Shown: positions 1 through 12,346 of the stretch, piece by piece
Layout of the letters: the number at the start of each line of letters is the position of its first letter
Position numbering within the stretch: the stretch's first letter is position 1
DNA from: Candidatus Edwardsbacteria bacterium
GTDB taxonomy: Bacteria; Edwardsbacteria; AC1; JBFLXN01
Reading direction: 5' to 3'
NCBI GenBank assembly: GCA_040755715.1
Contig: JBFLXN010000014.1
Coordinates: 1 to 12,346 of the forward strand
DNA: 12,346 bases
The notes under the pieces: generated by a model
Seen by the model: only the letters and a program-made list of their open reading frames with translations
Databases searched by the model: none
What the model was told of the DNA's origin: nothing
Made by a program: the position numbers and the translations under genes

Positions 1-331
1 CGAAATCCTCGGTTTTTACTAAAATTGCACCTCTTTGGATAAGCTTCGATATAATTTCATAATTTTTGCTGCCACCTTTCAGTCCCTCCTCAAGTATCTT
101 CTGGCCCATAGCCCCATCTGCAACCATTCCATCCTGATACACCTTAAAGTTAGCCACCTCTAATTTCTCAAAATATCTGGCTATTGAATCCCAGAAGCCA
201 GAGATAGTTTCTCTATGTTGCTTCCAAAACTTCTCCCCGAAACCTGCAATACCTCTTTTGTCCACCTGCCTAGCAATACTTCCAAGATCGGCACTCATGT
301 GGATGATTGGAACATAGATTAATTTTCGCAT
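1..331 (-). CDS. hypothetical protein, N-terminal 110 codons (gene continues past the left edge)
   Basis: This ORF is absent from the supplied track because it has no stop inside the window. Manual minus-strand translation from the ATG at 331-329 gives MRKLIYVPIIHMSADLGSIARQVDKRGIAGFGEKFWKQHRETISGFWDSIARYFEKLEVANFKVYQDGMVADGAMGQKILEEGLKGGSKNYEIISKLIQRGAILVKTEDF, open to position 1. The ATG overlaps the TAA of the upstream ORF (TAATG). No family recognised. Confidence 0.5.
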   Translation of the reverse strand, partial: MRKLIYVPIIHMSADLGSIARQVDKRGIAGFGEKFWKQHRETISGFWDSIARYFEKLEVANFKVYQDGMVADGAMGQKILEEGLKGGSKNYEIISKLIQRGAILVKTEDF

Positions 332-597
332 TATTTTCCTAATCCTTTAGCTTTTATTAAAAGTTCTGCTGTCTGTTTACGCAGGGTAGATATGGTTCTG
401 CAATTTTTACAATCCTCGTTTTTCTCATCATATTTTTCACAAGACAAAAGCATCTCCACCTCTTTCTTTAAGTGACTCGCCCTTTCGGCTTTATCAGTTA
501 CTGCCTTTGCCTCGTTGATATCGCGGGTCAATTCTTTAATGGTCCATTCCCTTTTTAGAAATATAGGGCACTTTATCTCTGGTTTTGGTTCTGCCAT
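331..597 (-). CDS. small hypothetical protein (88 aa, 4 Cys, charged and helical-looking)
   Basis: Track ORF. Its ATG at 597-595 overlaps the upstream TGA by 1 nt (TGATG), and its TAA overlaps the next ATG (TAATG), so it is translationally coupled on both sides. No family recognised. Confidence 0.55.
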   Translation of the reverse strand: MAEPKPEIKCPIFLKREWTIKELTRDINEAKAVTDKAERASHLKKEVEMLLSCEKYDEKNEDCKNCRTISTLRKQTAELLIKAKGLGK

Positions 598-1502
598 CAG
601 CGTTTAACCTCTGGGATCTGTTTTTCGCTTCCTAACTTCTGCAATCTGACCTCCAATATATTATTATGGTATCTTCTCACAATTCCTTCGCTGTCAACTT
701 TTGCTGGAAGAGAAACCTCTTCATAGTAGTTAGATTCGGGAGTTTTACAAGAGACGGTAAGTCTATCTTCATCTACCCCTAATAATATATCCTCTTCCTG
801 GGCACCTTTTAATTCCATAATGATGTTTAGATGGTCGCCTTCATCAAAGATATCCAATAACAATTCCTCTTTATCTTTTTTTAATTTATCCCCTCCGATA
901 ATCCACCAGCTAAACATAACTTTCTTTCCTGTGGATTCATCAATCTTACATCTTTGGAATACTAAAACCGGAAAACCTATCAGCTCTTGAGCCGTTGGAT
1001 TAATAATATTTCTTACCCTGTGGAGAATATCCATATGATTTGGCGCATTATAGCTGTGAGCCAATTCGTCAATGGTGGCATGTCTATTTTGCCAGACAAA
1101 AAGAAGTATATTTTGGCTCTCAGGATCTAACTCTTTGGCAATCTTATCTATTCCCTCTTGATTTATTTCCAATAGGCTTCTTTCAAATATCTTATTTTTC
1201 CACATCTCTACATCTTTTACCATAATCCAGGCCTTTGAAGCAGTTGCACCGCCTTGATTTCTATAAGAGATACAAAGGGCGTCCTTACTTCTTAATGTAA
1301 AACCCCTCTGTTGAATGCTGATTCCTTTTATATTTTCTAAGGACGTCTGGAATATAATCCTCGCCGGCTGCCAAAGAAAAAGCCTCAGGTTAGTCAGGTA
1401 CAGATGCCCTGGTTTCCAGCCGCTGCGTAGATTATCTTTGTAAAAACCCGGATCGCTTAGTATAACCTCTTCATTCGCTTTTAATTCAGGCTTATTTTTC
1501 AT
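597..1502 (-). CDS. PH/GRAM-like domain plus possible winged-helix module plus C-terminal alpha-crystallin (Hsp20) domain fusion protein
   Basis: The track ORF is 597-1598, and the codon at 1598 is TTG. The N-terminal motif GWKPGHLYLTNLRLFLWQ resembles bacterial PH/GRAM (G-x-LY-x-T-x-x-RL). The C-terminus, LLLDIFDEGDHLNIIMELKGAQEEDILLGVDEDRLTVS...VRRYHNNILEVRLQK, reads as an alpha-crystallin domain. The start is uncertain. ATG 1502 gives an 11-nt overlap with the upstream ORF. ATG 1565 is preceded by GGAAAG. TTG 1598 is the longest option. Confidence 0.8.
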   Translation of the reverse strand: MKNKPELKANEEVILSDPGFYKDNLRSGWKPGHLYLTNLRLFLWQPARIIFQTSLENIKGISIQQRGFTLRSKDALCISYRNQGGATASKAWIMVKDVEMWKNKIFERSLLEINQEGIDKIAKELDPESQNILLFVWQNRHATIDELAHSYNAPNHMDILHRVRNIINPTAQELIGFPVLVFQRCKIDESTGKKVMFSWWIIGGDKLKKDKEELLLDIFDEGDHLNIIMELKGAQEEDILLGVDEDRLTVSCKTPESNYYEEVSLPAKVDSEGIVRRYHNNILEVRLQKLGSEKQIPEVKR

Positions 1503-1767
1503 CTTTTCTGTAGTGTTTATAAGTAAAACCTGGATGTCTTGCACCACCGGGTTTGTTATCTTCATATTCTTTCCGTTTATATTTTGACCTTTTATCAAAT
1601 TCTACCCCTGTAGAATGTATTATCTGGGCATCTTCACCAGTTGAGTATTTAACCGAATATCTTCTTCTCTTTTTTGCCCACTCATCCCAGTCCATAGCTG
1701 TGGAGTGTCTCACCTTTGTGCCGCGGCCAGTAGAATACCCTGAAGTTTTAGGTGTCTTGGATTTCAT
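1492..1767 (-). CDS. small basic protein with four [HY]-S-T-[GA] repeats (hypothetical)
   Basis: ATG at 1767, preceded by AAGGGATAA (SD-like). The ORF fills what would otherwise be a ~180-nt gap in a compact operon. The motif occurs four times as GYSTG, HSTA, KYSTG and HSTG. Its codons differ mostly at wobble positions (CAT/TAC/CAC/TAT; TCT/TCA/TCC/TCT; ACA/ACT/ACA/ACT; GGG/GGT/GCT/GGC), which argues for selection at the protein level. Confidence 0.55.
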   Translation of the reverse strand: MKSKTPKTSGYSTGRGTKVRHSTAMDWDEWAKKRRRYSVKYSTGEDAQIIHSTGVEFDKRSKYKRKEYEDNKPGGARHPGFTYKHYRKDEK

Positions 1768-1782
1768 TTATCCCTTTTTTTC

Positions 1783-2355
1783 CTATTTCCATTTCCAATT
1801 ACAGGTCTTCCAATCATCAGGCACAGAAGGATGGTCTAAAATTCCTGTTTTCCCGCCTGCGTTATCAGTCTCCTTGACTACGTCCTCCTCGTCGACTTTG
1901 GGACTTTGCGGGGCAGGGGACGGAGCTTCCTCACATGGTTCATCTTGAGAGGAATCGAGGGCTTCAGCTGCTTCTTCCTCTTCTACGACCTCTTCGAAGA
2001 CTATCCCGCATTTCGGACAAACTGTTGTGTTTTCTTTTACGGCTGTGCCACAGCTCACACATTCATATCCTTCTATCTCTTCTACTTCTTTTTTGGTCTC
2101 TTCAGTGCCCATACTACCTCCAAGTTCTTTCTCGCCCTCGCCTTCGCCCTTAACCTGTTCTTCTCCCAAGGAAGTAATCCTGTATAAAGCAAACCTACCG
2201 GGCGAAAGCCTTTCTATATACCCTTTCTCCCACAATTTTTTGCATATATCATAGGCATAATTTATTGTAACCCTTAAGTTCCCGGCAATAGTTACGGTAT
2301 TTCCCTGTTTAATTTCCTTAAATTTTTCTAAAATCTTTTTCTCGTTAGGGGTCGT
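1783..2355 (-). CDS. winged-helix DNA-binding domain plus acidic linker plus zinc ribbon protein (putative regulator); non-canonical or damaged start
   Basis: The track ORF 1783-2235 begins at an internal TTG. The frame stays open upstream to the TAA at 2361-2359. That upstream part encodes the rest of a complete wHTH: TPNEKKILEKFKEIKQGNTVTIAGNLRVTINYAYDICKKLWEKGYIERLSPGRFALYRITSLGEE. A perfect SD, AAGGAGGT, lies at 2368-2361, with ACG 6 nt downstream at 2355-2353. There is no ATG, GTG or TTG between 2358 and 2236. The zinc ribbon is CVSCG-x11-CPKCG. Confidence 0.6.
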   Translation of the reverse strand, partial: TTPNEKKILEKFKEIKQGNTVTIAGNLRVTINYAYDICKKLWEKGYIERLSPGRFALYRITSLGEEQVKGEGEGEKELGGSMGTEETKKEVEEIEGYECVSCGTAVKENTTVCPKCGIVFEEVVEEEEAAEALDSSQDEPCEEAPSPAPQSPKVDEEDVVKETDNAGGKTGILDHPSVPDDWKTCNWKWK

Positions 2356-2405
2356 CTTTTACCTCCTTATGTTCTTGGTTATTATTCTATCCTTATGCCA
2401 ACATT

Positions 2406-2858
2406 TCAATATTCGATAGATACAGATTTCCACTTCTTTTCGGCTCTACTCCCTTTGCCTTGGCGCCCTACTTTTTCTTGAAGAGTAGTCAATCTATTGG
2501 GTCCACGATTACGAATTACCAACCACGACCCACGAGTAGGTCCAGATAATTTAATCTCGGCTCGAGAGTGAGGTCCGAGTTTTGTCTCCTCTAACACATC
2601 ACCTTCTAAGGTAAGCCTTCCATTTTCATCTATCCTGCCTTGACTTTCCATCATAGTAACTTCGAACTGTGAAAGGCGCGGGACCATGCTTTGCAGATGA
2701 TAAACAATCAAATATGGCCACCGCATGCTTCCTTTAATCCTTACTACTTTAATTCCCACTGGGCTTGCGAGATTTAATCCCGCTTCCCTTCGAATATTCG
2801 AAGGAATAGATAATCTACCCTCTTCATCAATTTCGCTAAATCCTTTTAACAGCGGCAT
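2406..2858 (-). CDS. tandem AbrB/SpoVT/MraZ-like (swapped-hairpin) domain protein, putative DNA-binding
   Basis: There are two copies of the D-x-x-GR-L/I signature. The first is [21 protein letters not shown] and the second is [21 protein letters not shown]. The ATG at 2858 overlaps the Hsp70 gene end by 23 nt. Confidence 0.7.
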
Positions 2859-4602
2859 CTTTTGTTTCTATCTTTAGATTTCTCTTTATCCGTTTAAACG
2901 CATTATAGACAATCTCAACCAGCTTTCTTAATTCATCAATTTTTACCCTGGTCTCTTTATATTCACCCTTGGATAAAGTTGTCTTTATTGCCAGGATTAG
3001 TTTCTCTATTTTTTCTACATCTGACCTATCTATTAGACCCTCTCCTTCTTCCAGAACCATCTCTGCTGCTTGTATCATACTTTCCGCTCGAATGCCCATT
3101 TGAATCTCTTCTTTTCGCTTTTGGTCTTCCTTGGCATGAATTCGGGCATCTTCTATCATCTCGTTAATCTGGTCCTTGGTCAGCCGGGAAGAAGAACTGA
3201 TCTGGATACTTTTTTCATTATCGGTATGTAAATCCAAGGCTCTGACTTGTAAAATCCCATTGGCATCTATATGGAATGTCACCTCAATCTGAGCTTCACC
3301 CCTTCGACCGGGTGGAATATCAGTAAGCTCAAACTTACCCAGACTTATATTATCGAAGCTCAGGAATCTCTCTCCCTGCAAGACATGGATATCGACCTGA
3401 GTCTGGTTATCTTTAGCTGTCGTAAATATCTGACTGCTGGATGTAGGAATGGTGGTATTTCTTTCTATGATCTTAGCAAATATCCCTCCCTCAGTCTCAA
3501 TTCCTAAAGAAAGGGGAGTAACGTCTAACAATACCACATCTTTTATTTCCCCAATCAAGATATTGGCTTGAATTGCTGCGCCAAGAGCCACTACCTCATC
3601 CGGATTTATATCCTTATAAGGTTCTTTGCCCAGAAGCTCTCGAGCGAGCTTTTGCACAGCAGGCATTCTGGTGGAGCCTCCTACCAAAACTACCCTGTCT
3701 ATCTGGCCGGGGTTGAGCTTTGCATCAGAAAGGACCTGTTTAGTAGGCTCTATCATCTTCTCTAATAAATCCCTGGTTAGCTCTTCAAACTGCTCTCTAC
3801 TCATAGTCAGATGCAGATCCATATCTTGTATGAGAAATGGGATTCTGATATCTGCAAACCTTTTTGTGGAAAGTTCTTTTTTTGCCTTCTCTGAAGCCTC
3901 TTTCAACCGCTGTAAAGCCACCCTATTTCTTCTTACATCCACTCCATGCAACTTCTGAAAATTATCAGCCAAATAATCCATTATCCTCTGGTCCCAATCA
4001 TCTCCGCCAAGATGTGTATTTCCCCCTACTGCCTTCACCTCAAACACGCCATTGCCCAACTCTAAAATAGATACATCGAAAGTGCCTCCACCCAAATCCC
4101 ATATTAGAATATAGTGTATATCCTGCTTGTGTAAGCCGTAGGCCAGGGAAGCAGCAGTAGGTTCATTTATAATCCGCATTACCTCTAATCCGGCTAAGGC
4201 GCCTGCCTCCATAGTCGCCTGGCGCTGGTTATCATTAAAATATGCAGGAACTGTAATTACTGCTTTCTCTATTTTCTCGCCCAAATAATCTTGCGCATCT
4301 TCCTTGACCTTACGAAGGATTAAGGCCGAAATCTCTTGGGGGGTAAATTTTCTCTCGTCAATCTCTACCCCATAATCAGTGCCCATCCGACGTTTAATAG
4401 ATGCAATGGTACGTTCTGGATTTGCAACTGCCTGGGTTCTGGCAAGATTGCCTATCAGCTGCCTCCCTCCATCGGCAAAGGCAACCACTGAAGGAGTAAG
4501 CCTTCCGCCTTCAGCATTGGGTATAATCTCAGGCCTCCCATTGTTTATAAAGGCGGCTACTGAAAAGGTAGTGCCTAAATCTATTCCTATTACCTTACTC
4601 AT
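2836..4602 (-). CDS. dnaK: Hsp70/DnaK-family chaperone paralog (588 aa)
   Basis: Hsp70 motifs present: [56 protein letters not shown] substrate-binding domain ([13 protein letters not shown]) and a helical lid are also present. The true start is the ATG at 4602-4600 ([12 protein letters not shown]), in an ATGA overlap with the upstream stop. The 34-aa extension in the track lies inside the upstream gene. Confidence 0.93.
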
Positions 4603-5672
4603 TTGGCTACCTGGGCTATTTTCTTCTTTAACCGTGGGCTGACCCAGCCGCAGTTTACGCAACCCTTTTCTAATAGCTCTAAGGCGTTTGCCTTTTTTCC
4701 GCATTGAGGGCAGGCTTCTGTTCTTTCTCTAAATGATATGATTCGGGTAAGCGCCCTCTCCCACTCATACATTCCCTCTCCTGAAAAAGAGGCAACCTTT
4801 CTTTGAGAACCACCTTCACCCAGCCCTTGCGCGCAAGAGCTGGGTTCATATATTACGTCAAAGACCTTTTTCTTCTTTAATACCGGGCTCAAATTCCTTA
4901 CATCTATAGCAGAACCTAATATCTTTTCTGAAGGGACTTCAAAAGCCAATCTCTTTTCAAAATCATACCACCAGCATAATCTCTTATTTGTTATATACAG
5001 ATGACCGGGCTTCCAGATACCATCTGATGAGGCCATATGCCAGGCCTTGCCCTTGTGAGTAATCGTTTCTCCTTCTGTCAGGAAATCTAATGTCTCTTCC
5101 TCATATTCGGGTAGAATAAGGTTTTCATCAATTATAAGTCCGCCTAACTTTATCGCCTCTTTTATAGACTCACCTAATTTATCTATCTCCACAGACCGCA
5201 GACGCGCTAATCTATCATCCTTAAGAATAAGTAAGAGCGTATCTTCTTGTATCAAGAGCCCCTTTATCTCATCTAAAGAGGTTTGAAACATCACTTCATT
5301 AAGCTCTTGATTCATGAGCAGCAGTCTTTTATCAGTTAAATAAATCTGCCCCGGTCTCCAACTAACATAGATTCCTTTGGCATAAAAAAAAGAGCCCAAC
5401 ATCTTAAGTTTAAGCTCTTCTCCCTGGATTAAAGAAATCTCTTTTTTAGCTCTATTATCTTTTTCCCAGGCGCGAATCTTCTCATCCCATGCCTTCATCA
5501 TGCCATACTCGAGCATAGTCTCCATGCCGGCCAGGGCGGCTCTTAAATTAACACCGATTAAAGGGATGCCCGCCACAGAGATGATAATGTCAGCGTTGAT
5601 CACCAACCCCTTATCCAGGACCCTATCCAATAAATCAACCAATGTGACCCGTGCATCTCTGGTTGGCTCCAT
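4599..5672 (-). CDS. GvpA/J/M-family (GvpM-like) N-terminal domain fused to two PH/GRAM-like domains and a C-terminal zinc ribbon
   Basis: The N-terminus [49 protein letters not shown] matches the gas-vesicle structural core (LxxVxDRxLDKGxV...). Two PH-like motifs follow, [15 protein letters not shown] and [16 protein letters not shown]. The C-terminus is [25 protein letters not shown]. The ATG at 5672 is preceded by AAGGAG. Confidence 0.85.
4815..4848. repeat. second copy of the 26-bp palindrome (one mismatch), flanked by direct ttca, inside the GvpM-like fusion CDS
   Basis: cccagcccttgcgcgcaagagctggg lies at 4819-4844, with ttca at 4815-4818 and 4845-4848. Element plus one flank is 30 nt, or 10 codons, so it is in frame. 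It encodes [10 protein letters not shown]. Confidence 0.7.
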
Positions 5673-5691
5673 ATGTCGCTTCGCTCCTTTA

Positions 5692-5733
5692 TCAGAATTC
5701 AGAAGTCAGATTTTTCTATCCTCTGTCCTCTGT
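5692..5733. promoter_or_regulatory. two sets of tandem heptamers in the 85-nt gap upstream of the GvpM-like fusion gene
   Basis: TCAGA occurs at 5692, 5699 and 5706, with a 7-bp period. cctctgt occurs twice in tandem at 5720-5733. Confidence 0.25.
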
Positions 5734-5757
5734 TACCTGTTTTTCTATGCTTTGGCT

Positions 5758-6522
5758 TTAGGCGAATGAGTATGGTGGCCAGGGGCCTGTAAATCGAACG
5801 ATCAACCCATTTTCTTTTTTAATCTTTTCTAAAACTTCGCCAAGCCTTTTGACATTTTCCTTAGCAACCAAACAGGATAAGTTCATGATCATCTGTAAGT
5901 TCTCATCTACTTTTTTAGCCTTATCTATATGAATATCAAAAACTTCTTTCTTTATCCGAGCATAAAAGTCCTTAAAATATTCATCGGCCTTTTTTCCCAT
6001 CTCTTTCCTTAATAGATTCTTTATCTTCTCTTCATACATATAGGCTGTGCCCGGTGGTTTAGACTTCAACTCCTCTTTCAAATTCTTAATCTCTGGGCTA
6101 TCTTCGGCTATTCTTTCAACCATAACCTTGGGATCCCATAAAATCTGGACTCCATATTCTTCTTTGCCCTTGACTTTATTTAATCTTTCTTTTAGATTCT
6201 GGTAATCTTTTTGCAGCCACTTTTTCATATTTTCTTTCGGGTCTATGCCTTCTTCGCCAATAATTATGGTATCAAATGCCAGAGGCAGGACAGTACCAAA
6301 CCTCTGCCAGGCATAATCCACTACCTTCTGGTGAGTCATTACCCAACCTTTTACAATATCTTTATCTTCTGATTCGTAGGGGTGAGGTTCACAGTTGTGA
6401 ACAACGGCTGAAATTTCCTGGTATGGAAGAGTGTAAACGTTGCTCCCATCAATTCCAATCTCACCCAGGCTTACCTTTTCGTTGCCATCAGCTATGCAGT
6501 AGAGATATATACCGTCGTTCAC
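5758..6522 (-). CDS. gvpF: gas vesicle protein GvpF/GvpL family
   Basis: N-terminus GIYLYCIADG, then VLPLAFDT, then C-terminal FTGPWPPYSFA, which together are typical of GvpF/L. The preferred start is the GTG at 6522-6520. It forms a GTGA overlap with the gvpK stop and is preceded by AAGGAGA with an 8-nt spacer. The track's ATG at 6549 lacks an SD and overlaps gvpK by 31 nt. Confidence 0.88.
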   Translation of the reverse strand: MNDGIYLYCIADGNEKVSLGEIGIDGSNVYTLPYQEISAVVHNCEPHPYESEDKDIVKGWVMTHQKVVDYAWQRFGTVLPLAFDTIIIGEEGIDPKENMKKWLQKDYQNLKERLNKVKGKEEYGVQILWDPKVMVERIAEDSPEIKNLKEELKSKPPGTAYMYEEKIKNLLRKEMGKKADEYFKDFYARIKKEVFDIHIDKAKKVDENLQMIMNLSCLVAKENVKRLGEVLEKIKKENGLIVRFTGPWPPYSFA

Positions 6523-6836
6523 TTGGCTGTCTCCTTTATTTTTTCCCATCTCGTGGGATTAGCTATTTTATCTATAACATCGTTGACTATATTATCTAAA
6601 CCATCTCTCACTGATTGAACTGCCTCACCAACCCCTTGTTCCTCTTTTATATGCTCTATTGCGACGTCGAGTTCCTTAAGCGCTCTACCCAGACGTTCTA
6701 TCTCTTCTTCGTTTAGGCTTCCACCCTCCATTCGCTTTACCGCCTGAAGTTTAAGGGCATCTCTGATTATTTCAACCAAGGCAAGCACAAGGCCTAAAAC
6801 ACCGCTTTTAAGATTATCTTCATTGATATCTATCAT
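6519..6836 (-). CDS. gvpK: gas vesicle protein GvpK
   Basis: GLVLALVEIIRDALKLQAVKRMEGGSLNEEEIERLGRAL matches the GvpK core as I remember it. The ATG forms an ATGA overlap with the upstream stop. Confidence 0.88.
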   Translation of the reverse strand: MIDINEDNLKSGVLGLVLALVEIIRDALKLQAVKRMEGGSLNEEEIERLGRALKELDVAIEHIKEEQGVGEAVQSVRDGLDNIVNDVIDKIANPTRWEKIKETAK

Positions 6837-7420
6837 TTTTCTATTTTTACTTCTAAAATCCCATTCTTGTATGTTTTTTCTAGTTTTCCTTTAGATTCGC
6901 AGGGTAGTTTTAATTGCTGATGGTACTTGCGATCAGGAATATCTACTGATATTGCAAGGCTGTCTTTGACTAAATCAATTTTTATATCCTTTTCTTCAAT
7001 GCCTGGTATTTCAGCAATCACTTTAATATGATCTTCCTCATCAAAGATATCCGCTGGCCGCTCTTGAGGTGTTGGAGGGGGTGAGGGTTTTACTTCTGGT
7101 CTCTGTTTAGCAAAAGGTTTTCCTCTAAAGGCCCTTCCTCTTATGCCCGGAGGGATGCCGCCGGGGATACCCGAAGGCCTTCCTTCAGCTCTTTTCAAAG
7201 GGGCTTCTTTTATCTTACGCTCCACCTCTTTATCAACCTCCTTAAGCCTCTCTTTGAAAGCCGGGGATTTCTCCAGGCCTTTAATTAATCCCCCTAATCC
7301 GGGAATTACCTTGCCCAGACCTTTAAGTATTCCTCCTGCTACACTTTCAGATTCTTTTTCTCCCGCCTCGGGCGGGACATCCTCTGGTCGCTTTTTGTCT
7401 TTATCTTCTTTACCGGTCAT
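6833..7420 (-). CDS. Hsp20/alpha-crystallin domain protein with a long Gly/Pro-rich N-terminal region
   Basis: The C-terminus reads as an alpha-crystallin domain: DIFDEEDHIKVIAEIPGIEEKDIKIDLVKDSLAISVD...LEKTYKNGILEVKIEK. The N-terminal region carries G-rich repeats (GGILKGLGKVIPGLGGLIKGLEK, GIPGGIPPGIRG). The ATG at 7420 is preceded by AAAGGTG. Confidence 0.85.
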   Translation of the reverse strand: MTGKEDKDKKRPEDVPPEAGEKESESVAGGILKGLGKVIPGLGGLIKGLEKSPAFKERLKEVDKEVERKIKEAPLKRAEGRPSGIPGGIPPGIRGRAFRGKPFAKQRPEVKPSPPPTPQERPADIFDEEDHIKVIAEIPGIEEKDIKIDLVKDSLAISVDIPDRKYHQQLKLPCESKGKLEKTYKNGILEVKIEK

Positions 7421-7468
7421 ATTCTACACCTTTCTTTAGCTTTACTTGTTAAGCTGCTAGCTTATTTC

Positions 7469-7819
7469 TCATTCTGCCTTTATATCTTTTGCCTTGGCGC
7501 TTACCCAGCCACACCAGGGACAGCCCTCATCAAGTAATTCTTCTGCCAGAACTTTTTTGCCGCACTGTGGACAAAGTTCTTTACCCTTCATGGCTTCTTT
7601 CCAGGCTTCTGTTTCCACATTAGTCCCTGATGGAAACTCAAGGCCATACTTTGCTGCTGTCTCAAAAGAAGCCAGGGCTGCCCTTATCTTAATTCCCAAA
7701 AGCTCTACTCCGGCAACAGATATGGCGATATCCGCATTAATCACCAGGCCTTTGTCTAAAACCCGGTCTATGACATCAACCAAAGTAACACTTGCATCTT
7801 TTGTCGCTTCTATTGCCAT
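7469..7819 (-). CDS. gvpJ: gas vesicle structural protein, GvpA/J/M family (GvpJ-like), with a C-terminal zinc ribbon
   Basis: [53 protein letters not shown] is the gas-vesicle core, and it looks J-like from memory of the haloarchaeal GvpJ sequence. The C-terminus is CPQCGKKVLAEELLDEGCPWCGWVS. The ATG at 7819 is preceded by AAGGAGG with an 8-nt spacer. Confidence 0.88.
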   Translation of the reverse strand: MAIEATKDASVTLVDVIDRVLDKGLVINADIAISVAGVELLGIKIRAALASFETAAKYGLEFPSGTNVETEAWKEAMKGKELCPQCGKKVLAEELLDEGCPWCGWVSAKAKDIKAE

Positions 7820-7832
7820 TTCTATTGCCTCC

Positions 7833-8225
7833 TTACCCCGCTACTACACCTTGGCCTTTACATTTGGGGCAAGCCACTGGATGAGGTTTGCGCGGATATA
7901 CCCCACTTCCATTGCAAGTGGTGCATTTTTTAGAAGGTGTCATCCTTGTAACCACCCCTACCCCACCACAGGCTAAACAGTGTATGCGACTTGTAGTATA
8001 TGGGTCTATTCCCTTGCCACCACAAAAATTGCATTTCATTGTCGGGCCAATAATTCTCACCTTACCTTTTCCTAAACACACCTGGCAATCAGAAAGCTTA
8101 GATAAAAGCTGAAAAGGATCTTTTCCTATTCCATTACAAAAGGCGCATATAACTTCCACTTTATTTTTTTCTATTCGCCTAAGCTCCTCAGGTGCAATCG
8201 TAGCCCATTTTGGTTTTTTAGCCAT
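7833..8225 (-). CDS. DnaJ-type cysteine-rich zinc-finger protein with six CxxCxGxG repeats and no J domain
   Basis: Six repeats: CAFCNGIG, CQVCLGKG, CNFCGGKG, CLACGGVG, CTTCNGSG, CPKCKGQG. No HPD motif is present. The ATG at 8225 is preceded by GAGGAGGTG. Confidence 0.85.
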   Translation of the reverse strand: MAKKPKWATIAPEELRRIEKNKVEVICAFCNGIGKDPFQLLSKLSDCQVCLGKGKVRIIGPTMKCNFCGGKGIDPYTTSRIHCLACGGVGVVTRMTPSKKCTTCNGSGVYPRKPHPVACPKCKGQGVVAG

Positions 8226-8262
8226 CTTTCACCTCCTCACCTTCGGCTGGTCGGGGTTAGCA

Positions 8263-8320
8263 GTTATTAGTTATAAGTTATGTATTTTTAACTGATAACT
8301 TATAACCCGTAATCCATAAC
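8263..8320. promoter_or_regulatory. inverted arrays of GTTAT/ATAAC half-sites with 7-bp phasing (operator-like); includes a 12-bp perfect inverted repeat and a candidate promoter
   Basis: gttat occurs at 8263, 8270 and 8277; ataac occurs at 8295, 8302 and 8316. The perfect inverted repeat is gttataagttat (8270-8281) paired with ataacttataac (8295-8306), with a 13-nt loop. On the minus strand, TTATCA (8298-8293), a 17-nt spacer and TATAAC (8275-8270) resemble -35 and -10 boxes. The site lies in the 100-nt gap upstream of the zinc-finger gene. Confidence 0.35.
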
Positions 8321-8325
8321 TTTTT

Positions 8326-8901
8326 TTACCTTCTCTTCTTCTTGGGTTTCCCTTTGGTCTCTTTAGTCTTCTCCTTTATCTCTTCTTTTTCCTCCAAATC
8401 TTTTATGCGCTTCTTAAGTTCTGCCTCTTTTGTCTTAAAATCATCCCCAGTTATTTCAGCTCTCTCAAAACGCATTTTAAGCTCGAGGATTTCTTCTTCT
8501 AAGGCGACCTTAGGGTCTTTTTCTTCTTCAGCCTGCGCTCCCACTGCGGCAGTGATTCCTTTGACCATCTCTACTGGTTGATATGGCGCTGAAATTAGCT
8601 TACCCAAGAATCTAAATAACCCTATATCCTTTGGCCGTTCCAACTTGCGCCTTCTAATGGCTGGTACATTAGATATTCCCCATTTCTTAGTTGGCATCAT
8701 ACCCCAATATTTGGGAATAGTAATATTGGGTTTAGCGCTTACTAGGGGAATAGGTTTAGAAACCAAGGGAATCTCTTTACTAACCAGCGGAATAGCGCTT
8801 GCTACTTGGGGCATAGCCTTACTAACCGATGGTAAGCTACCCGCAGTAAAAGGAATGAATTTGGCTTCTTTCTTGTTAGATTTTTTCTTTTTGGGAGACA
8901 T
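8326..8901 (-). CDS. GvpG-like protein with an N-terminal [ILM]P-x-V-[SA]-K heptad-repeat extension and a Lys-rich tail
   Basis: The C-terminal half, LFRFLGKLISAPYQPVEMVKGITAAVGAQAEEE...LEEEILELKMRFERAEITGDDFKTKEAELKKRIKDLEE, parallels the canonical GvpG at 11444-11728. Compare LELKMRFERAEI here with LELQMRFEMGEV there. The N-terminal repeats are LPSVSKA, MPQVASA, IPLVSKE, IPLVSKP and IPLVSAKP. Confidence 0.78.
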   Translation of the reverse strand: MSPKKKKSNKKEAKFIPFTAGSLPSVSKAMPQVASAIPLVSKEIPLVSKPIPLVSAKPNITIPKYWGMMPTKKWGISNVPAIRRRKLERPKDIGLFRFLGKLISAPYQPVEMVKGITAAVGAQAEEEKDPKVALEEEILELKMRFERAEITGDDFKTKEAELKKRIKDLEEKEEIKEKTKETKGKPKKKRR

Positions 8902-8930
8902 CTTCCCTCCGCTCTTTTTTATATTTATAT

Positions 8931-10895
8931 TTATCCATATATTTCCTTAGAAAAATCCTTTAATCGGTCAATACCTTTGATCTGATAAGGGAAAAGCGGC
9001 AGCTGACCAATTTGATATTGCGAAGACCTTTCCCTCTCTATTTCCTGGATAATCTTAATCTGCTCACCTCTTTTTGACTCGCAAAAATTACATCTAGTTT
9101 TCGGAAGAATCATATTAACCAGAATATAATGAGAGGGGATGTTAAGTCGCTTAAGGTTCTCAAGGAGGCCGTCCATCTCACTCTTGCCCATAGCCTCTGG
9201 AATACCTACAACCACAAATTGACACCTCGCCGGATCTGTGAGAATCTCCTGTATTTTTCTCACCTTCTTAGAAAACTCTATCATCTCTTCAGCCTGTTTG
9301 GCCAATCGTACTATCCCCTTATATTTTATAAGTAATTTAAATATTGCATTTAGCCACTCCCTGGCAACCTGAGGCATCTCTAGAAACCGCAATAGGTGTC
9401 CTGTAGCTGCTGAATCTAAGATATATATATCAAATTTTCCTCCATCTATAAATTCCACCACCTTAGCTAAAGCCATAATCTCATCCAAACCGGGAGGAGT
9501 AAGTGAGATAAGTTCCTCTAAAATCTCCCTATCGAACTTAACATCCACTCCACCTCCGATAAATTTACTAAATACCTCGCTTATTTGGTCTTTATAATCC
9601 TTTTTAAAATTCTCAAGCAACTTCAAAGCATCTATCTCCAGGGCAAATAGATTATTGGGGACAGTCTCCTTCGGGGACAGTCCCCCTATCTGAGTGAGAT
9701 TATCTCCAATAGATAGACCAAAACTATCGGATAGCGAATGGGCAGGGTCGGTAGAAAAGACTAAGACTTTTTTAGAGGGGTATTTTTTGGCCATACTAAG
9801 TGCAGTGGCTGAAGCTATGGATGTTTTACCCACCCCACCTTTTCCCCCAAATATATATAATATAATGCCTTTCTCTATTAATTGAGGCAATTTAATAATA
9901 GAGAAAATCTTAGACTTGAAATCAAAAGGTTTCTTTCCAATGGGAAGGCGATGTGGCTTCTCTTCAAATAAAACCTGGGCATATTCCTTTAGTCGATCCA
10001 TCCCTCTGATTTGATATGGAAATATCGGTATCTGATGAAGTTCGAGATTTGCGAATTTTTGCCTGATTATATCTAATTCTTTCTTTTGTTCTTTCTCTTC
10101 CTTAGAACAAAAGGGACACCTGTTTTGACTACTTTTAATTTGATTGACGATAATAGATTTCACTGAAATTCCATATCCTTTTAATATCGCCAACAACCTT
10201 TCTGTCTCTTCTATAGCCAAGGTCTCGGGTTTAGTGACAGGTATAAATTCTGTTGAATCGCGGTTCTTTAGTAACCGACTTACTCTATCCACGTCGCTTT
10301 TCACCATCTCTAAAAATTCATCAGCGTCGTCTTTTTTGTATTTGCCAGCAAAATGGCTGGCTAAAAATCTATGCTTAGATTGCATCAAATCTAAAACTTC
10401 GACCCACTTTTTCATCTGAAGGGGTAAACCTAAAAGCCTTATGGTATGTCCTGTAGGTGCGGTGTCCAAGATGATTAAATCGTATTTCTCTTCTCTTAAG
10501 ATATTAGCTATTTTTATAACCGCCATTATCTCATCTAACCCTGGAATAGAAAGGGAAAAGAAATTCTCTATATCTTGCCTGTCGAAATAAGTTCCTCTCT
10601 CAACGATCTTTTTCATCACCAAATCATATTTCTTTTTAAAAAGAGAGGCCTCTTCCTCAGCTTTTATTTCTAAAGCCCAAAGATTGTTTAAATCTTTTAT
10701 GGGTGTAATGGTATTACCAACAGTATAGCCCAAACTATCACCCACTGAATGAGCAGGGTCACAGGATACAATCAAAATCCTCTGCTTGGGATAATGTTGG
10801 GCTAAATAAAGGCCAGTAGCAGTCGCTGATGTAGTTTTTCCGCAACCCCCCTTTCCACCAAAGATTATTAGACGCCGCTTCTCGCTGATTTTCAT
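8931..10895 (-). CDS. tandem-fused ArsA/Get3 (TRC40)-family ATPase (654 aa, two homologous halves)
   Basis: Half 1 has GGKGGCGKTT, CDPAHSVGDSLG, DTAPTGHTIRLLGLP and a CPFC motif. Half 2 has GGKGGVGKTS, TDPAHSLSDSFG, DSAATGHLLRFLEMP and a CNFC motif. Each half ends in a matching tail: IPIFPYQIRGMDRLKEY in half 1 and LPLFPYQIKGIDRLKDF in half 2. ATG at 10895. Confidence 0.92.
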   Translation of the reverse strand: MKISEKRRLIIFGGKGGCGKTTSATATGLYLAQHYPKQRILIVSCDPAHSVGDSLGYTVGNTITPIKDLNNLWALEIKAEEEASLFKKKYDLVMKKIVERGTYFDRQDIENFFSLSIPGLDEIMAVIKIANILREEKYDLIILDTAPTGHTIRLLGLPLQMKKWVEVLDLMQSKHRFLASHFAGKYKKDDADEFLEMVKSDVDRVSRLLKNRDSTEFIPVTKPETLAIEETERLLAILKGYGISVKSIIVNQIKSSQNRCPFCSKEEKEQKKELDIIRQKFANLELHQIPIFPYQIRGMDRLKEYAQVLFEEKPHRLPIGKKPFDFKSKIFSIIKLPQLIEKGIILYIFGGKGGVGKTSIASATALSMAKKYPSKKVLVFSTDPAHSLSDSFGLSIGDNLTQIGGLSPKETVPNNLFALEIDALKLLENFKKDYKDQISEVFSKFIGGGVDVKFDREILEELISLTPPGLDEIMALAKVVEFIDGGKFDIYILDSAATGHLLRFLEMPQVAREWLNAIFKLLIKYKGIVRLAKQAEEMIEFSKKVRKIQEILTDPARCQFVVVGIPEAMGKSEMDGLLENLKRLNIPSHYILVNMILPKTRCNFCESKRGEQIKIIQEIERERSSQYQIGQLPLFPYQIKGIDRLKDFSKEIYG

Positions 10896-10949
10896 CTGCG
10901 TTCATCTGATTTCCGGTGATATCTACGTTTATCTACGTTATTCTACTTC
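10891..10949. repeat. 10-bp-phased direct repeats spanning the gvpO end and the ATPase start
   Basis: ttcatctg occurs at 10891 and 10901. atctacgtt occurs at 10921 and 10931, with a degenerate ttctacttc at 10941. The first pair duplicates the ATG context (CAGATGAA twice on the minus strand). Confidence 0.4.
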
Positions 10950-11207
10950 AACTGTCTCGGTATCCGCCCTCTTTCTTAACCTTGTCCGATTAAATTCCAT
11001 TACATTGCCATCGTCATCCAAAATTACCTCATAGGTGGCTAAGATATCCATCTGGTCAGGAATGGAGTGCTTTTCTATCATCTCCATAGTAACCTTCCAG
11101 CCTTTTTCATCCTTAGCCGCCCCTAAAGTAGTAGAAAGTTCCAGTCCTGTAAACCTACTCAATTCCTCACGAGCCTTCTCAATAATCTGTTGCATTGTCT
11201 TCGCCAT
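10938..11207 (-). CDS. gvpO: gas vesicle protein GvpO
   Basis: The pattern AREELSRFTGLELSTTLGAAKDEKGWKVTMEMIEKHSIPDQMDILATYEVILDDDGNVMEFNRTRLRKR matches my recollection of the GvpO family (...G-W-x-V-x-x-E-x-x-E...P...D-x-LA-x-YEV-x-LD..G.......R). The ATG is preceded by AAGGAGGT with a 7-nt spacer. Confidence 0.82.
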   Translation of the reverse strand: MAKTMQQIIEKAREELSRFTGLELSTTLGAAKDEKGWKVTMEMIEKHSIPDQMDILATYEVILDDDGNVMEFNRTRLRKRADTETVEVE

Positions 11208-11232
11208 CTTTTATACCTCCTTTTTTAAAAAG

Positions 11233-11439
11233 TTATAGTTTCCTTTTAATCTTAGCCCCACAGGAAGGGCAGAATGCATAACCATAAATATACCGCCACC
11301 TTGCCCCACATTCCTGACATTCGATATTTAAGGGTTCTCCGCATTCTGAACAAAACCGCAGATTCCCCCAGGTTACACTTCCGCATCGAGGGCACCTAAA
11401 TGCACCTTTTGGTAGTGCTGGTTCTATTCTTTCTTCCAC
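11233..11439 (-). CDS. double zinc-ribbon protein (68 aa)
   Basis: Four CxxC pairs: CPRCG, CSECG, CQECG, CPSCG. The GTG start at 11439 is preceded by GGAGGTG with a 5-nt spacer. Confidence 0.72.
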   Translation of the reverse strand: MEERIEPALPKGAFRCPRCGSVTWGNLRFCSECGEPLNIECQECGARWRYIYGYAFCPSCGAKIKRKL

Positions 11440-11443
11440 ATTC

Positions 11444-11728
11444 TCACCTCCTCTCCTCTTTGTATTTCCTGATTGCCTCTAATCTTTCCAGGATTTTTCC
11501 TTCTTTCTTTTTATATTCCTCTTCGTTCACCTCGCCCATCTCAAAGCGCATCTGAAGTTCTAGCAACTCTTCCTGCACTTTAGACTCATCGGTCACCTCA
11601 GTCTCGGCTGTCTCCTTTAGTTTATTTCCGATCCATACCACCCCCTTTATAGGCAACAAAAAAGGCAATAAAATATCGGTTAATCCAAAACCCGATCCTT
11701 TAGAACCACTCTCAGGCTTTTCCTTCAC
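11444..11728 (-). CDS. gvpG: gas vesicle protein GvpG
   Basis: LTDILLPFLLPIKGVVWIGNKLKETAETEVTDESKVQEELLELQMRFEMGEVNEEEYKKKEGKILERLEAIRK fits the GvpG pattern. The present start is the GTG at 11728-11726, in a GTGA overlap created by the inserted element. See the findings for details. Confidence 0.85.
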   Translation of the reverse strand: MKEKPESGSKGSGFGLTDILLPFLLPIKGVVWIGNKLKETAETEVTDESKVQEELLELQMRFEMGEVNEEEYKKKEGKILERLEAIRKYKEERR

Positions 11729-12020
11729 CCCGCCCTTCCTTTCCTTGCAATGCCAAGTCTAGATTTTAATCTTGCCAAACCACTTCCGAACTTCTTCAAG
11801 CTTTTTTCCCTTTCAAATGCCACATCTTTAGATCTATAGGCCTCAAAATATATTAACTCCACTGGTAACATCTTTCTAGTTGAATATATCTTTCCTTGCT
11901 TATGCTCCATTAACCTTTTTTTCAAGTTATTCGTACATCCTATATAAATCCAGTCTTTAACTTTACTACTGAGTAAATATATATAATGCCAATTAGGCTT
12001 TTTAGGAAGGGCGGGGTTCA
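11724..12020 (-). mobile_element. putative miniature autonomous element: TTCA | 12-bp TIR | GIY-YIG ORF | 12-bp TIR | TTCA
   Basis: The plus strand has ccccgcccttcc at 11728-11739 and its perfect reverse complement ggaagggcgggg at 12005-12016. Direct ttca copies flank these at 11724-11727 and 12017-12020. The ORF start (xTG) and stop (TGA) both fall within the flanking TGAA copies. Confidence 0.5.
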
Positions 12021-12021
12021 C
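11725..12021 (-). CDS. small GIY-YIG nuclease family protein (98 aa)
   Basis: WHYIYLLSSKVKDWIYIGCTNNLKKRLMEHKQG...ELIYFEAY...AFEREKSLKK carries the GIY/YIG motifs, the conserved Arg, the Glu and the RE-x-x-x-K signature. Start is the GTG at 12021 and stop is the TGA at 11727-11725. The ORF is bounded by 12-bp inverted repeats. Confidence 0.85.
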   Translation of the reverse strand: MNPALPKKPNWHYIYLLSSKVKDWIYIGCTNNLKKRLMEHKQGKIYSTRKMLPVELIYFEAYRSKDVAFEREKSLKKFGSGLARLKSRLGIARKGRAG

Positions 12022-12176
12022 CCTGCCCTTCCTTTTCTCGCAATGCCAAGCCTATATTCAATTTGGCTAAACTGTTTTTGCATTTCTTTAAAATCTTTGC
12101 CCTGCCCTTAAGCTTAAAATGTGGGATTTACCCAGCCCTTGCGCGCAAGGGCTGGGTTTAGGAAGGGCGGGGTTCA
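12017..12176 (-). mobile_element. degenerate, internally deleted tandem copy of the GIY-YIG element
   Basis: The TIRs are ccctgcccttcc at 12021-12032 (one mismatch) and ggaagggcgggg at 12161-12172, with flanking ttca at 12017-12020 and 12173-12176. The copy keeps the first 7 codons (ATG AAC CCC GCC CTT CCT AAA = MNPALPK). It also keeps the last 11 codons plus stop (RLGIARKGRAG*), which differ from the intact copy only synonymously. Its interior is disrupted by stops and a 26-bp palindrome. Confidence 0.45.
12127..12160. repeat. 26-bp perfect palindrome cccagcccttgcgcgcaagggctggg flanked by direct ttta
   Basis: The palindrome spans 12131-12156 and is exactly self-complementary. Direct ttta copies sit at 12127-12130 and 12157-12160. 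It is GC-rich in an AT-rich context. Confidence 0.7.
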
Positions 12177-12346
12177 TAACTTTCTCCTTCAAGTACAATT
12201 ACTAATTCTACAAAGTTACATGGAGGTACAGGTCCAACGTATTTGAACTTTATCCTTCCATCATAAATTGTGCTTAGTCTATCTACTAATCTATCAAATT
12301 CTTCCACCCGGGGCTTTTCTACCAAGAAAGCTAAGTTTGTTATCAT
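12158..12346 (-). CDS. gas vesicle protein GvpF/GvpL family, C-terminal 62 codons (gene starts beyond the right edge)
   Basis: LAFLVEKPRVEEFDRLVDRL...IKFKYVGPVPPCNF parallels the FTGPWPPYSF end of the other GvpF/L gene. The last codons (YEPRPS) and the stop lie inside inserted repeat sequence. Confidence 0.82.
   Translation of the reverse strand: MITNLAFLVEKPRVEEFDRLVDRLSTIYDGRIKFKYVGPVPPCNFVELVIVLEGESYEPRPS

Follow-up and report, generated by a model that had tools for sequence, protein, structure and literature searches.

Two proteins of one gas-vesicle (gvp) gene cluster end in the same small cysteine ribbon, and the question addressed here is how this module came to be shared and what it may do. 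The cluster occupies the minus strand of the window, i.e. the whole 12,346-nucleotide stretch of DNA that was analysed, and both proteins, 116 and 357 residues long, belong to the GvpA family of shell proteins. The seeding of gas vesicles is acknowledged as an open question (PMC9994262, PMC11445434). GvpJ and GvpM, the types to which the two proteins are related, are prime seeding suspects for which no handles are known, and a putative metal-binding module common to both would provide a tractable experimental entry.

In the order of transcription, the cluster begins with a gvpF/L gene cut by the window end, a GIY-YIG ORF, a gvpG gene (94 aa), a gene for a 68-aa double zinc ribbon protein and gvpO. 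These are followed by a two-domain ArsA (465 bits), a gvpG of 191 aa, a 130-aa DnaJ-type CxxCxGxG zinc-finger protein (7833..8225, minus strand; PF00684, 43 bits) and the 116-aa GvpJ-type protein. Directly after the latter lies the gene of a ribbon-less Hsp20 of 195 aa (6833..7420, minus strand; Pfam HSP20 match), then gvpK (6519..6836, minus strand; PF05121, 68 bits), a gvpF/L gene (5758..6549, minus strand; PF06386, 220 bits), the gene of the 357-aa protein and dnaK. Several small ORFs and a 333-aa protein (597..1598, minus strand) complete the series. Profile and NCBIfam matches divide the 333-aa protein into a PH-like domain, a middle domain and an Hsp20 domain: jackhmmer matched residues 39–137 together with the PH domains of GvpM-type proteins, so that the PH module is common to both, the middle domain resembles a “hypothetical” gene of haloarchaeal mini-clusters (E 1.7e-14), and the NCBIfam archaeal Hsp20 match covers residues 237–331.

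The ribbon and its two carriers

That the two paralogs end in a common ribbon, as the original prediction had it, was confirmed, the Cys4 motif CPQCGKK-x5-ELL-x2-GC-x2-CGWVS being present in both translations. In the pairwise alignment that had been suggested as a check, BLASTP aligned the ribbons apart from the shell domains, with 20 of 31 residues identical (65%, E 3e-11); the N-terminal shell domains share 54% identity over 79 aa (E 2e-24). The similarity of the ribbons is not due to chance and, judged by sequence, they are homologous. Membership of both proteins in the shell family is supported by Pfam Gas_vesicle (PF00741), a 39-position shell-domain profile with a gathering cut-off of 25 bits, which matched aa 12–50 of the 116-aa protein with 61.3 bits and aa 10–48 of the 357-aa protein with 62.4 bits. 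The C-terminal part falls into the class of Cys4 zinc ribbons with two CxxC knuckles, as the four cysteines were found in all 240 top homologues (the best 120 of each protein) and their columns are invariant. The ribbon thus appears to be a small, independently folding four-cysteine module, with two CPxCG-type knuckles placed 13 residues apart, and the Cys4 pattern points to a putative metal site.

The GvpJ-type protein (7469..7819, minus strand), denoted J-ZnR in the following, has a C-terminus that reads ...ELCPQCGKKVLAEELLDEGCPWCGWVSAKAKDIKAE. Its shell (GvpA-like) domain spans aa 12–60 (7640..7786), a region that is nearly invariant in the homologue alignment and includes the Pfam match. 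The linker EFPSGTNxETAAWKEAxxGK (aa 61–80; 7580..7639) connects it to the J-type ribbon ELCPQCGKKVLAEELLDEGCPWCGWVS (aa 81–107; 7499..7579), delimited from the translation and the invariant residues. An antisense ORF on the plus strand (7494..7976) overlies the gene and is taken as a by-product of the coding strand. The best NCBIfam match of J-ZnR was the haloarchaeal GvpJ model NF046090, with 98.3 bits compared to 57.8 for GvpM and 56.8 for GvpA, which is below the cut-off of 125 bits of a model tuned to haloarchaea. Database searches returned 3958 homologues; the best 120 of these are 77–94% identical to J-ZnR and all carry a CPxC-x13-CPWC ribbon. In this set, ribbon residues C83, P84, C86, K88, L95, C100, P101, C103, G104 and W105 are invariant. 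The linker is likewise conserved among the 120 sequences, with F62, P63, G65 and T66 invariant and E61, S64, A72 and W73 at least 90% conserved, which suggests that it may pack against the ribbon. Comparison of the 27 ribbon codons with six related gvpJ genes gave 9–12 synonymous and 3–8 amino-acid-changing differences; by this codon-level evidence, the ribbon is conserved and under selection. An AlphaFold2 (AF2) model of J-ZnR, calculated with the 120 homologues of 77–94% identity, reached a pLDDT of 49.6 and was unusable.

For the 357-aa protein (4599..5672, minus strand), the best NCBIfam match was the haloarchaeal GvpM model NF046091, with 97 bits over model positions 1–67 of 67 and a cut-off of 109 bits, compared to 55.8 bits for GvpJ. 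As both window proteins score below the haloarchaeal equivalog cut-offs, they are named GvpJ-type and GvpM-type here and are not treated as equivalogs. At least 1036 homologues of the long protein were retrieved; the best 120 are 49–100% identical, and each of the 120 carries the ribbon. The match at 100% identity is a protein from a “Candidatus Edwardsbacteria” MAG. In the AF2 model a disordered shell domain precedes two confident PH-like domains and a confident ribbon. The low pLDDT of the shell domain in the monomer model (Pfam match at aa 10–48; 5529..5645) is probably usual for GvpA-like domains outside their lattice. PH-like domain 1 (aa 87–176; 5145..5414) is modelled with seven strands and a C-terminal helix at block-mean pLDDT values of 73–92, and PH-like domain 2 (aa 204–316; 4725..5063) is delimited by the AF2 model, Foldseek and a weak GRAM match (Pfam, 18.1 bits, under the 23.6-bit cut-off). 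Both regions are thus predicted to adopt the PH-like fold, a seven-stranded beta-sandwich capped by a C-terminal helix. A Foldseek search of the PDB gave 163 matches at E ≤ 1e-3; those listed are mostly PH-domain proteins, and the top matches are the double-PH proteins BBS5, FARP1/2, Dok7 and Spt16M (E 1e-8 to 1e-5). Precomputed GRAM and Vps36-GLUE matches exist for many homologues of the 357-aa protein. Model and Foldseek results together bear out the pair of PH domains expected in the middle of the long protein.

The M-type ribbon (aa 319–345; 4638..4718) is delimited from the translation and has C321, P322, C324, C338, C341 and W343 invariant in 115 aligned homologues. AF2 predicts residues 318–345 as a compact strand/knuckle/short-helix/knuckle unit, with a block-mean pLDDT of 83–87 over residues 311–350. 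Strands 318–320 and 327–329 and helix 330–335 are arranged around both knuckles in the model, consistent with a compact knuckle and beta-hairpin fold.

Distribution, mobility and origin

A scan of one genome per species located at least 494 stretches encoding a relative, from which 80 loci of 70–91% identity were kept. The GvpJ ribbon is present in all 80. The proposed search of the Gvp family for such extensions therefore has a two-sided outcome: the ribbon is common, in the kept loci as in all best homologues, but it is not annotated as a domain and has not been studied. Bacterial carriers include Nitrospirota, Thermodesulfovibrionales, Omnitrophota, Chloroflexota/Dehalococcoidia, Atribacterota and Actinomycetota, further Bacteroidales, Ignavibacteria, Desulfobacterales, Zixibacteria, Petrotogaceae and Verrucomicrobiota; archaeal carriers include Methanophagales, Methanomicrobiaceae, Methanomassiliicoccaceae and Halobacteriota. 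Among cultured organisms, Desulfoluna spongiiphila AA1 is a carrier, and tblastn identified full-length ribboned GvpJ on plasmids of Natrinema zhouii, Natronococcus occultus SP4 and Streptomyces sp. SGAir0924. The plasmid copies belong to mini-clusters of four or five genes, located on the Natronococcus and Natrinema megaplasmids and on the Streptomyces linear plasmid. GvpM, GvpK and GvpL/F constantly accompany ribboned GvpJ, also in these mini-clusters, and GvpF/L together with J, K and M forms the conserved core. GvpK was found in 62 of 62 related loci with a GvpM-type ORF and in half of the shorter loci. Specific to a single, widespread lineage of gvp clusters, the ribbon also defines this lineage, which is large, mostly uncultured and without a representative among the model organisms. 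Many of its clusters encode ArsA, a split Hsp70 system, PH-domain proteins and Hsp20. ArsA is encoded in 24 of 31 loci with ribboned GvpM vs. 7 of 31 with ribbon-less GvpM, DnaK in 15 vs. 6 and the DnaJ-like zinc protein in 16 vs. 3 of the same 31 each; these are raw locus counts that include the shared ancestry of clusters, and the enrichment may be due to common descent of the cluster type and not to function.

The range of carriers has a bearing on whether the Cys4 site could act as a redox or metal switch, freeing its metal on oxidation or metal limitation and thereby coupling seeding to the redox state. Zinc-thiolate switches are known from Hsp33 and RsrA-type proteins, and buoyancy control along redox gradients is plausible. 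Most of the carriers found are anaerobes, namely Atribacterota, Dehalococcoidia, Desulfobacterales, Thermodesulfovibrionales and the methanogen and ANME lineages. Against this stands the ribboned GvpJ of Natrinema zhouii, Natronococcus occultus and Streptomyces sp. SGAir0924, cultured members of aerobic groups, whose full-length tblastn matches weaken the notion of an anaerobe-only redox module; moreover, nothing in the sequence sets a switch apart from a structural site. Overall, a switching function is regarded as distinctly improbable.

The ribbon was also found outside the two shell-family proteins. A 40-position profile of J and M ribbons was run against 1.84 billion cluster representatives with a cut-off of E ≤ 1e-3 and gave only 118 matches, 106 of which fall into four gas-vesicle-linked classes. 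These are GvpJ-type proteins with ribbon, GvpM-type proteins with ribbon and in part PH domains (fragments included), small proteins of two or three tandem ribbons, and Hsp20 proteins with an N-terminal ribbon. The module is thus fused to four different carriers. Five ribbon subtypes can be told apart, all with identical spacing and with CPxCG...(E/K)ELL..GCxxCGW as their common core; identity is 53% between J and M ribbons and 37–45% for the other pairs. In 22 of 72 loci examined, the start of a two-ribbon ORF lies no more than about 0.4 kb from the stop codon of gvpJ; in 13 loci Hsp20 comes next, giving the order J, two-ribbon ORF, Hsp20. The genes of two ribbon-Hsp20 fusions (P0348 and P0336) immediately follow ribboned gvpJ in loci L084 and L085, in the slot that the ribbon-less Hsp20 (6833..7420) occupies after J-ZnR in the window; the gene order of L085 (J, Hsp20, K, F, long M) is that of the window. 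In L084, the GvpJ ribbon ends in GCPICGWTSPLK and the adjacent Hsp20 ribbon in GCPICGWVSPLK, with the common ending GCPICGW(T/V)SPLK. Another GvpJ (P0082) has linker and ribbon duplicated in tandem. The tandem duplication and the ending shared in L084 point to the 3' end of gvpJ as a source of local duplications, and given its presence on non-shell proteins the ribbon behaves as a mobile module.

With these data, the origin of the long protein can be revisited. According to the original prediction, it would be a descendant of the short type into which the PH pair was inserted, between shell domain and ribbon. Both proteins do begin with a shell domain and end in a ribbon, and a 140-aa GvpM with ribbon and without PH domain (P0249, a single representative in the global library) makes an M-ribbon ancestor that later gained PH domains conceivable. 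Still, the shell domains fall into separate orthologous groups, GvpJ-type in the short protein and GvpM-type in the long one, which does not support a derivation of the latter from the former. The shell domain of the 357-aa protein groups with the short, ribbon-less GvpM of classical clusters. One classical cluster of the same lineage (L003) has, beside ribboned GvpJ, two GvpA genes of 68 aa each and a short GvpM without ribbon, the shell domain of which closely resembles the N-terminus of the 357-aa protein. J-type and M-type ribbons are likewise distinct subtypes, with 73% and 65% identity within type and 53% between types. When GvpM architectures were counted in 60 non-redundant related loci, 29 of the 43 proteins with PH domains were found to carry the ribbon, compared to none of the 17 that lack a PH domain. 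Proteins with one PH domain comprise 11 without and 4 with ribbon, those with two PH domains 3 without and 25 with ribbon; ribbon-less forms thus occur with one as well as with two PH domains. On GvpM, the ribbon travels with the PH module. These counts, the J and M grouping of the shell domains and the demonstrable mobility of the ribbon speak against an insertion into the short type, which we consider a very doubtful origin. The data rather suggest a placement of the long proteins within the GvpM clade, in which M-PH forms without ribbon would be basal.

A possible docking role in vesicle seeding

One module on two seeding proteins, on a holdase-type chaperone and on an adaptor-like tandem protein is read most simply as a docking tag. 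We therefore tentatively propose, as a reading with a reasonable though less than even prospect of being right, that the ribbon serves as a docking tag for the GvpJ/GvpM/GvpK/GvpL seeding complex. By analogy to the published GvpA structure, the C-terminus of a GvpA-like subunit would lie on the outer, cytoplasmic side, and the ribbon of GvpJ and of GvpM-PH-PH would face the cytoplasm. There it could gather its carriers at one site of the complex from which a new vesicle is seeded, with ribbons either touching one another or docking on a common receptor, for which GvpL/F or GvpK are candidates. GvpJ would always be tagged and GvpM-PH often; in other clusters, the two-ribbon adaptor and the cluster's small heat-shock protein would be tagged as well.

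Several published observations on gas-vesicle assembly relate to this proposal. J, M/S, K and L have been proposed as the seeding set, GvpA requires J, S and K for its interaction with GvpL, and purified bicones were reported to contain J and S (PMC11445434, PMC9994262). GvpJ and GvpM/S were not found in intact mature vesicles (PMC9501494, PMC9994262, PMC11445434). Haloarchaeal GvpH is reported to prevent aggregation of GvpM in PMC9501494, which does not call GvpH an Hsp20; on the assumption that GvpH corresponds to the Hsp20 of the cluster, its effect would fit a chaperone tethered to J or M.

As to the partner, recognition of the ribbon by the CxxC-rich proteins of the cluster had been suggested initially. 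Such partners cannot be universal, as the GvpJ ribbon is kept in clusters that encode neither a ribboned GvpM nor the DnaJ-like CxxC protein. Both candidates were rejected as obligatory partners, many loci with ribboned GvpJ being devoid of either. In the Natronococcus and Streptomyces mini-clusters the GvpJ ribbon is kept with no other ribboned protein encoded nearby, so that ribbon-ribbon pairing cannot be the only mode.

A passive function was considered as well, in which the ribbon is a steric or solubility cap, i.e. a rigid hydrophilic knob without a specific partner. Such a knob would keep GvpJ and GvpM soluble and block GvpA-like polymerisation into ribs, thus confining both to tips or seams. 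In line with this, GvpJ and GvpS are reported to be less aggregation-prone and less toxic than GvpA despite the common hydrophobic core (PMC11445434). Moreover, model GvpJ and GvpM have non-homologous C-terminal extensions, and the GvpJ of Halobacterium aligns only to aa 13–69 of the 116-aa protein. A passive knob would, however, not need the near-invariant surface residues K88, L95 and W105 or a conserved linker, and it leaves the ribbon on a soluble Hsp20 and on a stand-alone two-ribbon protein unexplained. We rate the cap as rather unlikely.

Going beyond the docking tag, the ribbon could mark a self-contained seeding/shell module, composed of ribboned GvpJ, GvpM, GvpK, GvpL/F and a small accessory domain, that is able to exist without gvpA. 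On the Natronococcus and Natrinema megaplasmids and the Streptomyces linear plasmid, such a module stands by itself. No gvpA was found in the window or in the 10-kb flanks of gvpJ in the syntenic loci L002/L005, L006 and L007, and in window-type clusters the two ribboned genes are the only GvpA-family genes within 20 kb. We view this extension as improbable. If the genomes have no gvpA elsewhere, the wall would be made of ribboned GvpJ itself and the vesicle would bear metal-binding knobs all over, or else the module would form another kind of protein nanocompartment; chaperones and adaptors would then recognise the module by its ribbon, which would act as a code.

As an experimental entry to seeding, the ribbon gains in interest because sister clusters have it also on a chaperone and on a protein resembling an adaptor. 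It is also relevant for the mining of gas-vesicle clusters for acoustic reporter genes, where an outward-facing ribbon might tolerate fusions or serve as a natural attachment point.

Comparison with known systems

Neither window protein received an at-threshold Pfam or NCBIfam call over its ribbon. The closest family is Pfam DUF7560 (PF24441), which gave 16 bits (E 0.01) for the J ribbon, under the 27-bit cut-off, and did not report the M ribbon, so that neither is assigned to it. Tandem-ribbon proteins encoded beside ribboned gvpJ score 33–38 bits, above the cut-off, and these members are homologous to the J and M ribbons. The family differs in being a 44-position entry that has no assigned function and a listed description without reference to gas vesicles. 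A sequence profile search of the PDB revealed no significant relative over the whole ribbon. Its matches were dismissed as kin because they cover only generic CPxCGK knuckles, namely designed C2H2 fingers over 9–15 residues and eL37 (E 0.1–0.6).

Such generic Cys4 ribbons and rubredoxin-type knuckles (eL37, eL43, eS27, Nop10 and RNA polymerase subunits) are similarly small and have two CxxC knuckles and the CPxCG signature, but the conserved (E/K)ELL..GC..CGW core and the spacer of 13 residues set the gas-vesicle-linked proteins apart. The resemblance nevertheless invites the view that the ribbon binds nucleic acid or is regulatory. Automatic JGI names (“ssDNA-binding Zn-ribbon”, “L37AE/L43A”, “DUF1610”) point in this direction, as do the general similarity, the non-significant eL37 matches in the PDB and an NCBIfam S27ae match (E 0.01). 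Pfam, NCBIfam and the PDB gave no significant match to any nucleic-acid-binding ribbon family, however, and a module that is restricted to gas-vesicle clusters and carried by shell-family proteins and a chaperone makes this the least credible of functions, to which we attach hardly any weight.

Within the gas-vesicle field, the review PMC9501494 mentions a zinc motif on one gas-vesicle protein only, the zinc finger at the C-terminus of haloarchaeal GvpC. GvpC resembles the ribbon proteins in having a zinc motif, and it is located on the outer surface; it differs as an unrelated helical-repeat protein of the outer layer, and no sequence relationship to the ribbon was detected in the PDB profile search or in the search of 1.84 billion representatives. 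The occurrence of ArsA and Hsp20 in gvp clusters was described in 2010 (Castillo and Saier, PMC2963123), and the window is of this kind, with two-domain ArsA (Get3-type) and Hsp20 genes beside gvpFGJKLMO. The passages of that work on these genes describe neither a ribbon nor PH domains. In public records the proteins are named “gas vesicle protein” or bear generic zinc-finger names. The expectation that a metal-binding ribbon on shell-family proteins is undescribed held for the searchable gas-vesicle literature, where titles and abstracts of papers on GvpJ and zinc contain none. As the ribbon is common, is called by neither Pfam nor NCBIfam and is the subject of no paper found, it apparently represents an undescribed domain architecture of a known family.

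The nearest characterised relatives are GvpJ and GvpM of Halobacterium salinarum, which correspond to GvpJ/GvpS of Bacillus megaterium and GvpA3/GvpA2 of Serratia. Halobacterium GvpJ is 61–65% identical to aa 13–69 of the 116-aa protein (tblastn), and as the alignment stops at residue 69 it is devoid of the ribbon. The C-terminal tails of the model proteins are unrelated and have no Cys4 ribbon, and the window GvpM-type protein differs further by its two PH-like domains. Otherwise, the likeness is close: the model proteins are minor GvpA paralogues with the same N-terminal shell domain, and both are encoded in a cluster with gvpK, gvpF/L, gvpG and gvpO. By homology, the GvpJ- and GvpM-type proteins of the window presumably share the early-seeding role of model GvpJ and GvpM.

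Conservation and genomic setting of the ribboned GvpJ

The GvpJ-type protein carrying the C-terminal Cys4 ribbon retains 70–91% identity across distant bacterial phyla and archaea (loci L004–L083), for example 79% to a homologue in a Methanophagales MAG. Such conservation suggests that the protein is under extreme constraint, that the cluster has been transferred horizontally, or both. Two unusual ribboned forms were noted. P0082 (172 aa) is a GvpJ with linker and ribbon duplicated in tandem, and P0281 (154 aa) joins an M-type ribbon to an N-terminal region that appears TIR-like by eye; the latter may be a chimeric ORF.

No canonical gvpA of ~68 aa was found at positions 1–12346 of the window, or in the 10 kb flanking gvpJ on each side at the syntenic loci L002/L005, L006 and L007 (Nitrospirota, Thermodesulfovibrionales and Euphemobacter; 20 kb each). 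The only GvpA-family genes in the window and in these syntenic stretches are the two ribboned ones. Elsewhere among the fetched loci, a GvpA-type gene of 67–118 aa (mostly 68 aa) accompanies the ribboned gvpJ in 27, usually 4–10 kb upstream. In L002, two small ORFs that resemble winged-helix regulators by eye mark where the cluster ends on its upstream side.

Three plasmids of cultured organisms carry self-standing modules of four or five genes: Natronococcus occultus SP4 plasmid 2 (L086, 9001–11568), a Natrinema zhouii plasmid (L088, 7001–9561) and a Streptomyces sp. SGAir0924 plasmid (L087, 9001–11594). These mini-clusters encode the ribboned GvpJ, GvpK, GvpL and either a small hypothetical protein or GvpM-PH-PH, i.e. 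a GvpM-type shell domain with two PH-like domains; the haloarchaeal ones (L086 and L088) additionally contain a short GvpM. A TetR regulator gene adjoins the mini-clusters, and no annotated gvpA, N, O, F or G was found near any of the three.

Ribbon carriers and Hsp20 proteins next to gvpJ

The same ribbon occurs twice in tandem in a family of 94–165 aa proteins (Pfam DUF7560), exemplified by L010 7367–7777, L034 10415–10723, L009 2786–3217 and L050 4223–4555. In 22 of 72 loci its gene lies directly 3' of the ribboned gvpJ, and an Hsp20 gene often comes next; the window has no member of the family. Hsp20 proteins with an N-terminal ribbon occupy the slot directly after gvpJ in L084 (P0348, 3102–3683) and L085 (P0336, 7486–7935). 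The Hsp20 in the same slot of the window (6833–7420) has a Lys/Glu/Pro-rich N-terminal region in place of the ribbon.

A further Hsp20 domain forms the C-terminus of a 333-aa protein (597–1598, minus strand), preceded by a PH-like domain (aa 39–137), which is a relative of the PH-like domains in the GvpM-type protein, and a middle domain. In the haloarchaeal mini-clusters, the gene that separates gvpK from the ribboned gvpJ encodes a "hypothetical protein" with homology to this middle domain (E = 1.7e-14).

Small ORFs flanking gvpG

A 98-aa GIY-YIG endonuclease-like ORF (11725–12021, minus strand) separates gvpG (94 aa) from the truncated gvpF/L. It is missing from the syntenic locus L002, a relative turned up only in L083, and it is probably a mobile insertion. 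Between gvpG and gvpO lies a 68-aa double zinc ribbon protein (11233–11439, minus strand; Pfam DZR, 36.8 bits), which is unrelated to the GvpJ/GvpM ribbon. A comparison of 84 sources, made up of 83 loci plus the window, showed relatives of this protein in 35.

Chaperone genes

The gas-vesicle cluster seems to contain a split Hsp70 system. Its apparent parts are DnaK (2836–4704, minus strand), a DnaJ-type zinc finger that has six CxxCxGxG motifs and is encoded as a protein of its own (7833–8225, minus strand), and a GvpF/L fused to a DnaJ J-domain, known from the syntenic loci (L002, 3449–4471; L085, 11958–12956) at a position past the window's edge. The window also encodes a two-domain ArsA (8931–10895, minus strand) with one CxxC per half, CPFC and CNFC. 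In Get3, a zinc-binding CxxC is located at the dimer interface, and the ArsA motif pair recalls this site by analogy.
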